From IMG/VR virus record IMGVR_UViG_2563366964_000004: 6,806 bases of DNA. One strand, 5' to 3'. This DNA comes from a virus (Duplodnaviria; Heunggongvirae; Uroviricota; Caudoviricetes). Below are positions 2,333-6,446 of the stretch, piece after piece (positions within the stretch are counted from its first letter, which is position 1; each line of letters opens with the position of its first letter). The translations under genes were made by a program, and so were the position numbers. The notes under the pieces were generated by a model. It searched no databases and had not been told where the DNA came from. It saw only the letters and a program-made list of their open reading frames with translations.

Positions 2333-3226
2333 ATGTCAGCTAAAAATGAACTTGTCGAACTGATGAAAGCAAAAGGTCTTAACCAGACGCAGGTCGCCCG
2401 CGCTATTGGTAAGAGCTCTGCCGTAATCAGCCAGTACCTGAATAATAAATACGACGGCGATATTGCATCGCTGGAAAACGATATTCGTAGCTTTATCGAT
2501 CGTCAGCATGAAAAAGAGCGCTCGGCACGTATCAGCGTCAAATTTGTTGATACCCCAACAACGCGCAAAGCCGTTGATGTTATACGCATGGCGCACGTCG
2601 AAGGTGATATCAACGTGCTTTACGGCGAAGCCGGTCTGGGCAAGACGATGATTTGCAAAGCCTACGTCTCTAAATACCGGGATGCGTTGCTGATTGAGGC
2701 CGACCCTGGCTACACCGCACGCGTAATCCTGGAAGAACTCTGCAACCTGCTGGGGCTCAGTACCCGCGGCAATATGCATGAACTTAGCGAAGCCTGCATC
2801 AACAAGCTGCGCGACTCTGGGCGCGTGCTGATTATTGATGAAGCTGAGAACCTCCCTCTGCGTGCGCTGGAATCTATCCGCCGCATTCATGACAAAACGG
2901 GGATCGGCATCGTCCTGGTTGGTATGCCTCGCCTGATTCTGAACCTCAAGGGCAAACGCGGTGAGCTCGTACAGCTCTATAGCCGTGTCGGTTTCGCCCT
3001 CAACCTCGGGCATAGCCTGCCGGGTGCTGATATTGACGTCATCGCCAGCAGCGTTCTCCCGGATGGCCTGAATGAAGACCTGAGCAAAGCGCTGTTCAAC
3101 GCATCAAAAGGTAATGCCCGCCGACTGTTCAAGCTACTGCGCGGTGCAGTTCGTACCAGTGCAATGAATGATGTTCCGGTCAGCGGTCATATCGTCAATC
3201 AGATAGCCGAAATGCTGATCCATTAA
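2333..3226 (+). CDS. B: Mu-type transposition ATPase / target DNA activator (MuB-like AAA+), 297 aa
   Basis: RBS GAGGAAG before ATG 2333. N-terminal HTH-like segment (LNQTQVARAIGKSSAVISQYLNNKYDGD, compare MuB FINDKYNGD). Walker A GEAGLGKT (about nt 2624-2647) and Walker B VLIIDEAENL (about nt 2825-2854). Size and position immediately after A match MuB. Confidence 0.9.
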   Translation: MSAKNELVELMKAKGLNQTQVARAIGKSSAVISQYLNNKYDGDIASLENDIRSFIDRQHEKERSARISVKFVDTPTTRKAVDVIRMAHVEGDINVLYGEAGLGKTMICKAYVSKYRDALLIEADPGYTARVILEELCNLLGLSTRGNMHELSEACINKLRDSGRVLIIDEAENLPLRALESIRRIHDKTGIGIVLVGMPRLILNLKGKRGELVQLYSRVGFALNLGHSLPGADIDVIASSVLPDGLNEDLSKALFNASKGNARRLFKLLRGAVRTSAMNDVPVSGHIVNQIAEMLIH

Positions 3227-3246
3227 TCCGGATTTAAGGGGGTTTT

Positions 3247-3525
3247 ATGCTGACTTTAACATCAGATAACACGCTGGTTTCAGCGCTGTATCGTACCGAA
3301 GCTGTTGTCGTTTCCCTCCAGGCTCGTGGCGTGGAAGTGAAAGGCATCGTGGTTCGGGAAGGTCAGCCGGTCATTCGTATTCAGCGCCATGCCATGTGTG
3401 ATTACCTGCTCACCAGCGGTAAAGCCAGCTACATCGAATATGGCCAGGGGAAATCGGGTAAATACCGCCAGGGCCTTTTCATCCAGGACGGCTGTCGTGT
3501 CGTCTGGTCAGAATCTATTCATTGA
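3247..3525 (+). CDS. Hypothetical early-region protein, 92 aa (occupies the position of Mu kil)
   Basis: ORF with RBS AAGGGGG (3236-3242) 4 nt before ATG 3247, 20 nt after the B stop. Same strand and codon usage as neighbours. No family recognised by eye. Confidence 0.6.
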   Translation: MLTLTSDNTLVSALYRTEAVVVSLQARGVEVKGIVVREGQPVIRIQRHAMCDYLLTSGKASYIEYGQGKSGKYRQGLFIQDGCRVVWSESIH

Positions 3526-3537
3526 AGGAGAAAATAA

Positions 3538-3729
3538 GTGGCAAAAGTCGTAATCAGCATAACCGATGCACCGCGCGGCATCAGTGTGGAGTGCCAGGTT
3601 TTTCCAGATGAAAAAGACAGTGAACTGACCCAGAAGGTCGCAGCCACTGTGGGGTATGGCCTGGCTGGCCATGTTAACGAAAAAATCCGTAATGCAATCC
3701 AGAAAAAGGGGAAGTCCAATGTCCACTGA
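3538..3729 (+). CDS. Hypothetical small protein, 63 aa, GTG start
   Basis: Strong RBS GAAGGAG (3524-3530) 7 nt before GTG 3538. Begins 12 nt after the previous stop and its last 11 nt overlap the next gene's start (ATG 3719), suggesting translational coupling. No family recognised. Confidence 0.5.
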   Translation: MAKVVISITDAPRGISVECQVFPDEKDSELTQKVAATVGYGLAGHVNEKIRNAIQKKGKSNVH

Positions 3730-4369
3730 AAACACCATCAAACAATACACTACCACCCAGGCTCCAGAGGGATACTGGACTGATGCTCGCGGCGTTCTGA
3801 CGCCAGTCAGTCTGATTAAAGAAATCGACCGCGATCGCGACCAGCTCGTTGGCGAACTTGTTGAGCAGGCGATTGTCGTTTCCTCTGCTCTGAGTGAGCT
3901 GAAATCACGCGCCTTTGCTGATATTCAGGCGTTTATCGACCTTTCGGCTGAAAAATACGGGGCCACCAAAGGCGGTAAAAAAGGTAATGTCACGCTCTAC
4001 AGCTTTGATGGCCGTTTCAAAATCCAGCGAGCCATGCAGGACAGAATTGCCCTGGACGAGCGTATACAGACTGCAAAGGCGCTTATTGATACCTGTCTTG
4101 CTGACTGGACAGAAGGTGCCCGCCCGGAGCTGAAGGCGCTGGTCAATGAGGCGTTTGATACTGACAAAGAAGGCAATATCAATACCGGGCGCGTTCTGGC
4201 ACTTCGTCGCCTGGAAATTGATGATGAACGCTGGCAGCAAGCCATGCAGGCAATCGGTGAAGCGGTGCAGGTCGTCGGTAGCCGTTCTTATATCCGCGTG
4301 TATGAACGTGTTGGTGACTCGGATGAATATCGTCCGATTGCTCTCGATATTGCCGGTGCGGGGGTGTGA
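3719..4369 (+). CDS. DUF3164-like Mu-prophage early protein, 216 aa
   Basis: The ORF track gives 3656-4369; I prefer ATG 3719 because GGGGAAG sits 5-8 nt upstream and that start overlaps the preceding gene's stop. Size, acidic composition and position after B match the DUF3164 family proteins common in Mu-like prophages. The family call is from memory, not a search. Confidence 0.6.
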   Translation: MSTENTIKQYTTTQAPEGYWTDARGVLTPVSLIKEIDRDRDQLVGELVEQAIVVSSALSELKSRAFADIQAFIDLSAEKYGATKGGKKGNVTLYSFDGRFKIQRAMQDRIALDERIQTAKALIDTCLADWTEGARPELKALVNEAFDTDKEGNINTGRVLALRRLEIDDERWQQAMQAIGEAVQVVGSRSYIRVYERVGDSDEYRPIALDIAGAGV

Positions 4370-4370
4370 T

Positions 4371-4604
4371 ATGTATGTTCTGGTAGATCGCACCCATGCC
4401 CGTAAACCATGCAGTCCATTTATGTCTTATGCAGTCAGCGCTGTACTTGCTGAGCAAGTTGGCGATTTTCATAACGCTGCAACAGCCTGGAAAACTGCAT
4501 TCAGCCTGGCGAAAACAGAGGTCAATTCTATCTGGGCAATATCGCGAATGGAGTTCTGTCTTCATGCGGCGAATCGTGGTTGGGGGATTCCGAATGAAAG
4601 CTAA
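4371..4604 (+). CDS. Small protein, 77 aa, possible ANR/PerC-like regulator
   Basis: ATG 4371 lies 1 nt after the upstream TGA (4367-4369), with GGGGGTG just upstream. The pattern A..AE..GD...AA.AW..A...A...W...R.EFC resembles small ANR/PerC-type prophage regulators as I remember them. The ORF track's longer 4146 start lies inside the upstream gene and is rejected. Confidence 0.45.
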   Translation: MYVLVDRTHARKPCSPFMSYAVSAVLAEQVGDFHNAATAWKTAFSLAKTEVNSIWAISRMEFCLHAANRGWGIPNES

Positions 4605-4785
4605 AGAGTTCAATCTGCGATACCCGGTTGGCAGCGTCTTTATTTATCAGCCAAATCCGGTTTTACGTGGCGGTAAGGTCGTCAGCACCGTTGACCAGGC
4701 TCGTGACTGCCGCGATGTATCGGTAGTTGAAATAAATCAAGAACCTTATTTCGCCAATATTAAATCGCTGATACCAGCTAGCTGA
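4594..4785 (+). CDS. Hypothetical small protein, 63 aa
   Basis: ATG 4594 preceded by TGGGGGATT, overlapping the previous gene's end (4604) by 11 nt. Product MKAKEFNLRYPVGSVFIYQPNPVLRGGKVV... No family recognised. The track's 4396 start would make most of the ORF overlap the previous gene out of frame, so the internal ATG is preferred. Confidence 0.45.
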   Translation: MKAKEFNLRYPVGSVFIYQPNPVLRGGKVVSTVDQARDCRDVSVVEINQEPYFANIKSLIPAS

Positions 4786-4865
4786 AATAACTTTTAATTA
4801 AACCTGTTTTAAATATGGCGTAAACCCGCCGGGGCTGGCTTACGCCTGAATTAAGGAGTTCTGTA
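4786..4865 (+). promoter_or_regulatory. Intergenic region with AT-rich tract, imperfect hairpin and RBS; candidate internal promoter or RNA structure
   Basis: The only intergenic gap over 50 nt in the window. AT-rich TGAAATAACTTTTAATTAAACCTGTTTTAAATAT (4783-4816), then inverted repeat GGCGTAA (4817-4823) / TTACGCC (4840-4846) around a 16-nt GC-rich loop, then AAGGAG (4852-4857) and ATG 4866. No T-run after the stem, so not a classic intrinsic terminator. Confidence 0.3.
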
Positions 4866-5588
4866 ATGGAAAATAAAGAGAAATATCTCCAGCGTATTAA
4901 AAAACTGCTGGCAATGGCGCGTAATAACTCCAGCGCTGAAGAAGCAGCACTCGCGCTGAGCCGCGCCCAGCGCCTGATGGAAACCCACAAACTGACTGAA
5001 GCCGATGCGGCGATGATGGATATCAACGAGGCATCCACTCAGAAAGCCCCATCACATGCTGAAAAGATGCCTGAATATATGGCGCTACTGGCTCATATGA
5101 TAGCGCTGGCATTCGGGGTTAAGTTCTATACCACCCACGGTCATGAGCGCTGGGATGCTCCAGCAAAACGCACCATCACCTATTACGGACCGGACGAACG
5201 TCCGCAGGTTGCAGCTTATTCCTTCGAGGTTCTTGGCAAGCAGCTGGCGAAGGCCCGTCGTGAATACACCGCCACGTTGCGTAAAAATATCAAACCCGCC
5301 ACCAAGGTGGCTCGTGCCGATACGTTCTGCTCTGCCTGGGTGAATGGTGCCTATGCCGTTATCAGTGACTTTGCCGTCACTGAGGCCGAAGAGACTCTCA
5401 TGGAGAGCTATCGCAGCAAAAAACTGAGTCAGGGCATGAAGAAACTGGAGCCTCGTAAACCGGGAAAAGCCAGCGGCACCGATGATGCAGCTAATCAGGG
5501 TTATCGGGCTGGCCGCAATGCGCAGTTACATCATGCTGTGACGGGGTCTTCAAATGCTGTAGCTCGAATTGAAGGGGGACCTCAATGA
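4866..5588 (+). CDS. DUF2786-like phage protein, 240 aa
   Basis: RBS AAGGAG 8 nt before ATG 4866. The N-terminus KYLQRIKKLLAMARNNSSAEEAALALSRAQRLMETHKL matches the DUF2786 signature as I recall it (K.L.LA....N..EAE.A...AQ.LM). The family is frequent in prophages. Its stop overlaps the next start (ATGA at 5585-5588). Confidence 0.7.
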   Translation: MENKEKYLQRIKKLLAMARNNSSAEEAALALSRAQRLMETHKLTEADAAMMDINEASTQKAPSHAEKMPEYMALLAHMIALAFGVKFYTTHGHERWDAPAKRTITYYGPDERPQVAAYSFEVLGKQLAKARREYTATLRKNIKPATKVARADTFCSAWVNGAYAVISDFAVTEAEETLMESYRSKKLSQGMKKLEPRKPGKASGTDDAANQGYRAGRNAQLHHAVTGSSNAVARIEGGPQ

Positions 5589-6088
5589 GAGATATCACCG
5601 CACTGGCGCAACACCTAAGAGTGTATGCCGAAGAATTCAGTTATCCGGTTCTATCTCCTGATGATTGCAAAACGCTGGTAGATGCGCTGGAAGCAGGACA
5701 ACCACACCACAACGGCCTGATGCAGCTCTCTAATGAACTGGTGATGGCTAAGCAGAGAATCGCAGAACTGGAGTCCGGCACAGCCACCGCGTCGCAGAGC
5801 GATTACTTTGCCTCTCTGGTAGCAATGGCTCGTGTTTCAGCAGAAAAAGCGATGCGGAAGTTCCCTCAGCCGAACTACGTGCTTCTTAAGGTTGCGGAGG
5901 AAGCTGGCGAGGTCGTGCAGGCCGGGGTCCATTACGCAGAGAAACGGATGGAGTGGCAGCAGGTAGAGGGCGAGATTGTCCAGCTGTTGGCAATGCTGAT
6001 TCGCCTGGTGACGGAGGGCGACCAGATTAATGGCATCACTCCTCCGGCCGATGGCATCCAGGTTATCGAAGGGGATAATTATGACTGA
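5585..6088 (+). CDS. Protein with MazG-like (all-alpha NTP pyrophosphohydrolase-like) C-terminal half, 167 aa
   Basis: RBS GGGGGA before ATG 5585. The C-terminal half LLKVAEEAGEVVQAGVHYAEKRMEWQQVEGEIVQLLAMLIRL shows the two acidic helices typical of MazG/HisE-like nucleotide pyrophosphohydrolases (EE.GE ... E.E..LL..L..L). The N-terminal ~90 aa is unassigned. This is a fold-level call from motif only. Confidence 0.55.
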   Translation: MRDITALAQHLRVYAEEFSYPVLSPDDCKTLVDALEAGQPHHNGLMQLSNELVMAKQRIAELESGTATASQSDYFASLVAMARVSAEKAMRKFPQPNYVLLKVAEEAGEVVQAGVHYAEKRMEWQQVEGEIVQLLAMLIRLVTEGDQINGITPPADGIQVIEGDNYD

Positions 6089-6446
6089 ACAACAGCGCAA
6101 GCCGGTGGTATTCATCGCCGGGCCGATGACCGGGTATCAGGATTATAACCGGGCAGAGTTCGACGCCGAGGCTAGTGTCCTGTCCGATCGAGGCTTCACC
6201 GTACTAAATCCGGCGATACTTCCAGATGGCCTTGAGCACCAGCAATATCTGGCAATTACGCTGGCGATGCTGGAGCAGGCTGATTCCGTTTTCCTCCTGG
6301 ATGGATGGGAAAAAAGCCGGGGCGCAATGCAAGAATTTCAGCGTGGCCGTGAGTTAGGTCTGGTATTTATGTTTCAGTCATGGGAGACAGCAACCCTCGC
6401 CATTATGCATAACCGCTACTCTCTTCGGGAGGTGACCAGTGAATAA
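6081..6446 (+). CDS. DUF4406 / nucleoside 2-deoxyribosyltransferase-like (DNPH1-like fold) protein, 121 aa
   Basis: ATG 6081 preceded by GAAGGGGA, overlapping the upstream stop (ATGACTGA). Motifs VVFIAGPMTG, VLNPA and LLDGWEKSRGAMQEF (conserved Glu77 at nt 6309-6311) match the DUF4406 signature and the D-G-x-E-x-S-x-G catalytic pattern of that superfamily. The track's 6030 start lies inside the upstream gene and is rejected. Confidence 0.65.
   Translation: MTEQQRKPVVFIAGPMTGYQDYNRAEFDAEASVLSDRGFTVLNPAILPDGLEHQQYLAITLAMLEQADSVFLLDGWEKSRGAMQEFQRGRELGLVFMFQSWETATLAIMHNRYSLREVTSE

Follow-up and report, generated by a model that had tools for sequence, protein, structure and literature searches.

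Does a short gene in the early region of a Mu-like prophage encode a protein that acts on regulators of the host, and is the second ORF that overlaps its 3′ end tied to it in function? We addressed this for positions 4371-4785 of a 6,806-nt window, by which we mean the whole stretch of DNA that was analysed. An earlier note made from the letters had proposed a small regulator of the ANR or PerC type at this site; its observation proved to be real, and its ANR interpretation essentially right. In our preferred reading, to which we give a probability of about 0.78, the gene encodes an Rnr-type ANR protein in a Mu-like early operon and acts by contact with host regulators of the AraC/XylS and/or H-NS families.

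Results

The gene lies in the early operon of a Mu-like prophage

The window covers the start of the early operon of a Mu-like prophage of Enterobacteriaceae and opens at a ner-like gene. On the plus strand follow each other the ner-like HTH gene, which marks the operon start (1-228), the MuA transposase gene (230-2287, a 685-aa ORF) and the MuB ATPase gene (2333-3226, a 297-aa ORF). Two small ORFs, after 3226, separate MuB from a DUF3164 gene (3719-4369, plus strand, with an alternative start at ATG 3656), which is conserved to the left of the ANR gene. To the right, the conserved neighbour is a DUF2786/DUF7168 gene (4866-5588, plus strand), and a 167-aa ORF, a DUF4406 gene and a 71-aa ORF lie after 5588. 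Matches among the Mu-like genes of the window were to AAA_22 and phrog_296, and near-identical or related loci gave Pfam matches to HTH_35, HTH_Tnp_Mu_1, Mu-transpos_C, GemA and Mor, with the related loci running on to GemA, Mor and lysis genes. A repressor-like ORF is encoded divergently upstream of ner in L007, an IMG/VR contig that is 100% identical to the window. The locus thus has the layout of a Mu-like early operon (divergent repressor, ner-like HTH, MuA, MuB, then small accessory genes up to GemA/Mor), and the assignment to such an operon in the earlier note is borne out by the genes at the window start and by the divergent repressor.

The order Ner-MuA-MuB-...-DUF3164-ANR-ORF63-DUF2786, in which ORF63 is the 63-aa ORF overlapping the ANR gene, is conserved across related Mu-like prophages. 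Its distal part, from DUF3164 to DUF2786, was found in a Trabulsiella prophage as well as in 11 of the 13 IMG/VR loci, at ANR protein identities as low as 40%; the other two loci (L018 and L019) keep DUF3164-ANR, and homologues of ORF63 and DUF2786 were undetected there. The Trabulsiella locus was the sole return of a scan of genome contigs, and the A4 scan of viral contigs matched nothing. A megablast search with positions 3600-5000 against phages and complete E. coli genomes returned no close copy.

Neither a sigma-70-like promoter nor a plus-strand terminator-like site was detected within 3200-5200; the sole terminator-like match in this interval lies on the minus strand inside DUF3164 (3843-3826) and is within the expectation from shuffled sequence. 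Since no internal promoter was detectable, we infer that the ANR gene and ORF63 are most likely transcribed from the early promoter upstream of ner.

Two gene starts in the operon deserve comment. The longest DUF3164 ORF begins at 3656, while relatives and gene callers favour 3719, which gives an 11-nt overlap with the preceding 63-aa ORF (3538-3729). For DUF4406 (6030-6446), gene callers give 138 or 121 aa, the longer form overlapping the 167-aa ORF by 59 nt.

The 77-aa ORF is a genuine gene under purifying selection

The ORF at 4371-4604 (plus strand, 77 codons and a stop) yields the product MYVLVDRTHARKPCSPFMSYAVSAVLAEQVGDFHNAATAWKTAFSLAKTEVNSIWAISRMEFCLHAANRGWGIPNES, a protein of 8.56 kDa with 3 Trp and 12 Ala; its description as an ANR-family gene of the Rnr type draws on profile, alignment, structural model and Ka/Ks. 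The start codon ATG 4371 follows the DUF3164 stop codon (TGA, 4367-4369) after 1 nt. A G-rich Shine-Dalgarno sequence, GGGGG, was read from the sequence 6 nt 5′ of the ATG (4360-4364, plus strand) and is kept in relatives.

Compared with relatives, the ORF has Ka/Ks values of 0.10-0.27 and is a genuine coding gene under purifying selection. The notion that this ORF or the 63-aa ORF is a random open frame and no gene, which could be raised because both are short and the window lists many spurious ORFs, has next to no probability left: Ka/Ks is 0.10-0.29 in both ORFs but > 1 in the alternative frame, both have strong HMM or PHROG matches, and synteny is kept among loci whose ANR proteins are just 40-78% identical. 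Selection and homology tests thus already rule it out.

[quoted passage not shown] The protein belongs to the small anti-activators of the ANR family, and within it to the Rnr type carried by prophages; the ANR-like regulator that the earlier note had supposed is supported by this match. At the level of annotation this identity is already known: NCBI calls the exact sequence 'ANR family transcriptional regulator' and lists 232 contigs with it, from Salmonella, Citrobacter, E. coli, Kluyvera and Yersinia. An exhaustive phmmer search gave 39 ANR representatives (clusters at 50% identity), as against four relatives from a word-indexed protein search. In an alignment of 34 homologues E28, A36, W40, W55, R59 and C63 are invariant and A21, A24, G31, A43 and A47 almost so. 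The published ANR signature (A10, E14, A22, W26, A29, W43 and R47, followed by aromatic-Cys; PMC4983702) is carried by the protein as A24, E28, A36, W40, A43, W55, R59, F62 and C63, and with 77 aa and 8.56 kDa it falls within the < 10 kDa given for ANR proteins (PMC4983702). The protein had been described as ending in R.EFC; the motif, R59-M-E-F-C63, is present, but 14 residues still follow it.

Other family searches were less informative. Pfam had no family for the 77-aa protein or for ORF63, PADLOC gave no match, and the 77-aa protein matched none of the DNA-binding families in Pfam or NCBIfam at E ≤ 1. Its PHROG match was phrog_2227 (function unknown), with a weak match to phrog_10396, 'transcriptional activator' (E 0.0056).

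The ANR model leaves out about 16 residues at the N terminus of the protein and 8 at its C terminus (RGWGIPNES). Prophage-type ANRs keep an N-terminal extension, M-x-V-x-V...KPCSPFM (window 4371-4421, residues 1-17), and a C-terminal tail, RGWG-x-x-x-ES (window 4578-4601, residues 70-77), and both of these conserved extensions fall outside the 54-position model. The tail overlaps the Shine-Dalgarno sequence and start of ORF63, so that constraints at the protein and nucleotide levels are confounded there.

Unlike the Aar and Cnr loci, neither the window nor the prophage early region holds an AraC-family gene. Rnr of EPEC, an accepted ANR member, likewise has no such gene nearby, so a neighbouring cognate AraC/XylS activator is not universal in the family.

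The closest functional reference is Aar (AggR-activated regulator), whose sequence we took from plasmid pAA of EAEC 042 (NC_017627). The two proteins share the family model, three predicted helices and a gap-free alignment with 33% identity over 52 residues (hhalign probability 96.7%). Mutations of A14, E18, A26 and W45 abolish Aar activity (PMC4983702); these residues correspond to A24, E28, A36 and W55, all four of which are kept. Aar binds residues 69-181 of AggR, blocks AggR dimerisation and DNA binding, and binds H-NS (PMC4983702, PMC5570504). It differs from the window protein in being 63 aa long, plasmid-encoded, located near its AraC-type partner AggR and activated by AggR; the window protein is extended at both termini and comes from a prophage locus with no AraC-family gene nearby.

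PerC is a remote relative only

The second half of the original proposal, PerC, did not hold. The 77-aa protein left the Pfam PerC model (PF06069) unmatched even at E ≤ 1, whereas EPEC PerC (pMAR2), the positive control, scored 143 bits. In an hhalign comparison the ANR profile aligned with EPEC PerC at a probability of 88% (E 3e-6, 47 columns), with the common pattern E..G.[FY]..AA..W...R..FC; the alignment reaches PerC residues 7-53 only, and PerC scored 18.2 bits on NF033650, below the cutoff of 32. To judge from these profiles the two families look remotely related, as was also suspected in a paper on PICIs (PMC11773190). Like ANR proteins, PerC is a small regulator on mobile elements, and the likeness is confined to its N-terminal ∼50 residues (PMC11773190); unlike the window protein it is 89 aa long, has an additional region at the C terminus and no second Trp, and activates LEE1.

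We therefore weighed whether the protein might be a PerC/Pch-type transcriptional activator instead of an ANR-type negative regulator. The hhalign result, the 18.2 bits of PerC on the ANR model and the weak match to phrog_10396 all point that way, but the PF06069 result speaks against it, as do the lack of the ∼35-residue C-terminal extension of PerC, the retention of W55, which is absent in PerC, and a score at twice the ANR cutoff. This alternative is very improbable; the protein belongs to ANR, not to PerC.

A TPR-like three-helix module is predicted

AlphaFold2, run with the homologue alignment, predicted three helices (residues 16-30, 33-46 and 50-69, pLDDT > 90) at a mean pLDDT of 83.8, in agreement with the three α-helices and lack of β structure expected of ANR proteins. 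A helix-loop-helix had been anticipated by the earlier note: the all-helical character was predicted with high confidence, but the model has three TPR-type helices and no simple helix-loop-helix. Against the PDB, the ANR profile matched consensus TPR proteins at E 1e-7, and the model superimposed on the TPR helices of Tom70 and TM1634 with an rmsd of 0.7-1.2 Å over 52 columns (Foldseek E > 0.5). Searched singly, the 77-aa protein gave weak TPR-like matches only (phmmer versus PDB) and no match to the Pfam TPR models; Foldseek against the PDB returned nothing significant for this model or that of ORF63, and sequence searches found no solved ANR or PerC structure. We also considered the pattern G-[DN]-[YF]-x-x-A-x-x-x-[WY]-x-x-A as a TPR-like helix-turn-helix repeat. 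With the TPR motif the protein shares the profile match and the close helix superposition; it differs in having a lone ∼1.5 repeats. The predicted structure can best be seen as a free-standing module of three TPR-like helices (∼1.5 repeats) with no DNA-binding domain, which fits a protein-binding rather than a DNA-binding role.

The protein is the positional counterpart of Rnr

The published lambda-red primers for deletion of rnr in EPEC E2348/69 (PMC10148876, Table 2) allowed the gene to be placed. Their sequences include the 3′ end of a DUF3164 gene and the beginning of an ORF63-like gene, and in NC_011601 they map to E2348C_RS14140, which encodes a 77-aa 'ANR family transcriptional regulator'. 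This gene is part of a Mu-like prophage that has inserted into eutC (NC_011601, 2716247-2731761; L111). Gene order in this prophage is that of the window, with a 63-aa ORF that overlaps the ANR gene by 20 nt; identities to the window are 38% for ANR (E 1e-13), 49% for ORF63, 81% for DUF3164 and 46% for MuA. Because of the same gene order and the homologous neighbours, the window protein is the positional counterpart of Rnr, and Rnr itself is an early-operon gene of a Mu-like prophage. A DUF3164-ANR junction of the EPEC type was present in 58 of 5426 complete E. coli genomes.

Rnr (E2348C_RS14140; ROD_02851 in C. rodentium) is likewise a 77-aa ANR protein of a Mu-like early operon, its locus reads DUF3164, ANR, overlapping 63-aa ORF, hairpin, DUF2786 as in the window, and both proteins end in the tail [RK]GW[GK]xPxE. 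They differ in that the 38% identity extends over 58 aa, the N-terminal 18 residues are unrelated and the prophages have diverged, as the MuA value attests.

Rnr (RegA-negative regulator) was shown by two-hybrid assays to bind H-NS and Ler; it controls > 500 genes, the T3SS among them, and can be exchanged for Aar and vice versa (PMC10148876). Its homologue from C. rodentium is a repressor of aggR when supplied in trans, regA expression increases when this homologue is deleted, and its authors placed it in a predicted phage region (PMC4038620); the 2023 paper on Rnr nowhere mentions a prophage (PMC10148876). What our analysis adds is this context: Rnr is an early gene of a Mu-like prophage, and its positional counterpart, the window protein, is encoded by a related prophage that is spread through Salmonella, Citrobacter, Kluyvera, Yersinia and E. 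coli. Taken by itself, the window gene is ordinary, having been named by the NCBI pipeline and having a studied positional homologue. The expectation of notable cargo was accordingly not upheld: the gene is a common, optional one of this prophage lineage.

The overlapping ORF63 is an independent gene

ORF63 (4594-4785, plus strand) encodes a conserved 63-aa protein of phrog_5591, as judged from PHROG, Ka/Ks and model. As the earlier note had it, this second ORF starts at ATG 4594, overlaps the ANR gene by 11 nt and has its own ribosome-binding site: the overlap, ATGAAAGCTAA (4594-4604, plus strand), is read as N-E-S-stop in ANR and as M-K-A-K in ORF63, and a Shine-Dalgarno sequence, GGGGGA (4582-4587, plus strand), lies 6 nt 5′ of the start, inside the ANR codons W71-G72-I73. 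In relatives the overlap is 11 or 20 nt. Relatives keep the position of the start (ATG, in one case GTG) but not the in-frame ATG upstream of it, and Ka/Ks against relatives is 0.10-0.29. Two longer versions of the gene were rejected: a 129-aa ORF from 4396, whose upstream frame across ANR has Ka/Ks of 1.3-2.0 and stops in relatives, and the 72- or 73-aa forms found among gene calls and in some assemblies, with Ka/Ks > 1, stops in relatives and the unconserved ATG.

The match to phrog_5591 (E 2.8e-27) carries no known function, and the homologues, all 'hypothetical' proteins from Enterobacterales, have 24 of 63 positions invariant. The best AlphaFold2 model (pLDDT 88.9; the other four 40-73) predicts an N-terminal helix and a small SH3/Tudor-like β-barrel; in the PDB, phmmer found nothing and Foldseek nothing significant.

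Each of the two genes is found without the other. In seven related prophages (L116, L123, L125, L130, L147, L161 and L162) DUF3164 is followed directly by ORF63 with no ANR gene, so ANR is an optional insert in this Mu-like lineage. Conversely, ANR stands without ORF63 in L018, L019, L030, L031, L040 and L041, in more distantly related Mu-like phages, in Serratia phage BZS1 and in the Enc34-like modules. The loci L002-L005 (e.g. L002:7475-7886) show mosaicism at the boundary: ANR and flanking genes are 95-100% identical to the window, and ORF63 is just 55% identical and resembles the EPEC-type allele (…EPYFVKI…). With ANR at 95% and ORF63 at 55%, the two genes have been exchanged independently. 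Overlapping gene starts are frequent in this operon. An obligate ANR-ORF63 pair was therefore rejected, since either gene occurs alone and the alleles are mosaic; for the same reasons the overlap is ordinary translational coupling, and ORF63 is an independent gene that is translationally coupled to ANR.

These data also bear on whether ANR, instead of regulating host transcription factors, could serve as an adaptor of phage proteins such as ORF63, DUF3164 or the transposition machinery. Such a role would suit the conserved coupling to ORF63, the fixed place of ANR directly 3′ of DUF3164 and the predicted TPR-like fold as a general protein-binding module. We consider it improbable, given that ORF63 lacks ANR at the seven loci and the converse also occurs, that the alleles in L002-L005 moved separately, that other genes of the operon overlap as well, and that host targets have been demonstrated for Rnr and Aar.

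In some relatives (L011:7500-7634, L012:8935-9069, L013:8836-8901 and L014:8113-8178) the N-terminal part of ORF63 is present a second time, in diverged form, ∼3 kb downstream; the identity is 40-59% over 22-45 aa (compare phrog_19503, 158 aa). The lineage of the window itself showed no such copy.

Host regulators as likely targets

We return to the preferred reading, an ANR protein directed at host regulators. By homology to Aar and Rnr, the 77-aa protein would act by protein-protein contact. It may bind the central dimerisation region of AraC/XylS-type activators of the host, and/or the oligomerisation region of H-NS-family proteins, and binding would alter the effect of these regulators on transcription of the host and possibly of the phage. 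Binding of one or both kinds of host regulator is likely on this homology, although the identity to the studied members is just 33-38%. The effect in the lysogenic state is uncertain, because an early-operon gene should be repressed in a lysogen. On the other side of this point, lysogens of EPEC and C. rodentium show phenotypes once rnr is deleted, and in Mu lysogens there is low-level expression of early genes (PMC3820752).

ANR genes recur in early and replication modules of other phages

Outside the lineage, ANR members were counted only above the NF033650 cutoff. Divergent Mu-like phages, including Pseudomonas phage VW-6B, carry ANR; in Serratia phage BZS1 the gene lies next to Dam, xis and int; and in 74 IMG/VR contigs (L030-L109) it lies between the genes for a family-A DNA polymerase/VRR-NUC and a SNF2 helicase. 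ANR genes are thus common in the early or replication modules of several types of temperate phage.

The setting in L030-L109 is a DUF2800 - Enc34 ssDNA-binding - PolA replication module, a second and unrelated phage context for ANRs. VW-6B gp10 (L020:5713-6177) is a 154-aa protein with an ANR domain (51.6 bits) as its C-terminal third, and its N-terminal part has weak HTH/RHH-like matches (compare phrog_30383); this protein may be an ANR fused to a DNA-binding domain.

The distribution raises the question whether ANRs serve the phage, for example by countering H-NS, instead of or besides tuning host virulence. On this alternative ANR binds the same proteins, but its selected role is that of an early antagonist of H-NS-type silencers (compare T7 gp5.5), relieving repression of the early promoter or easing replication and transposition in lytic growth, with virulence effects in the lysogen being incidental. 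No promoter specific to ANR was detected in the early operon that contains it, and the gene recurs in early or replication modules of unrelated temperate phages. The Enc34-like, divergent Mu-like and BZS1 loci all have no AraC partner nearby. H-NS is bound by Aar and Rnr, the Mu early promoter is repressed by H-NS, and other phages have anti-H-NS proteins (PMC8501957). T7 gp5.5, H-NST and LUZ24 gp4/Mip, small early proteins that bind oligomerisation regions of the H-NS family (PMC8501957, PMC5570504), offer a possible analogy at the level of function rather than of sequence or fold. In contrast, the window has ∼52% GC and no marked AT-richness, ANR is dispensable, being absent from the prophages in which ORF63 comes directly after DUF3164, no phenotype for the phage has been reported, and the Mu prophage domain is unaffected by the absence of H-NS (PMC3820752). 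On balance we regard this role as possible but rather unlikely.

A broader and still more doubtful idea is that ANRs were originally, and are mainly, early proteins of temperate phages that neutralise silencers and regulators of the host (H-NS family, AraC/XylS), Aar and Rnr being lysogenic side effects or domesticated copies. The settings would be Mu-like early operons, Enc34-like polymerase/helicase modules and lambdoid early-left regions, and the TPR-like fold may be the binding device. If ANRs do serve the phage, the induction state of a prophage would be tied to ANR-dependent virulence regulation. The reading that we prefer nevertheless remains contact of the window protein with host AraC/XylS and/or H-NS-family regulators.

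A conserved hairpin marks a variable gene slot

The operon's sole real intergenic gap, between ORF63 and DUF2786, holds an almost invariant 30-nt hairpin, GGCGTAAACCCGCCGGGGCTGGCTTACGCC (4817-4846, no strand assigned). An Rfam search of the window gave no match, and a simple terminator scan of the relatives did not call the hairpin. The exact 30-mer occurs in 56 IMG/VR contigs, in 53 of them directly 3′ of an ORF63 homologue. Because anything between 18 and 1295 nt separates it from DUF2786, a variable gene slot begins at the hairpin, and four contigs have two copies that flank an insert. As RNA, the minus strand folds best (-19.7 kcal/mol, z -3.8); a T-rich run follows the minus-strand hairpin in most relatives, and in EPEC a minus-strand ORF terminates just ahead of it. 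The hairpin may serve to terminate leftward transcription, as a site of processing or as a recombination linker.

The hairpin, which is also found at L111:9570-9599 and in loci L112-L167, is part of a longer element (4803-4846), TTTTAAA(A/T)ATGGCGTAAACCCGC(A/C)GGGGCTGGCTTACGCC. This element is 82-93% identical, compared with 58-72% for the adjoining ORF63 DNA.
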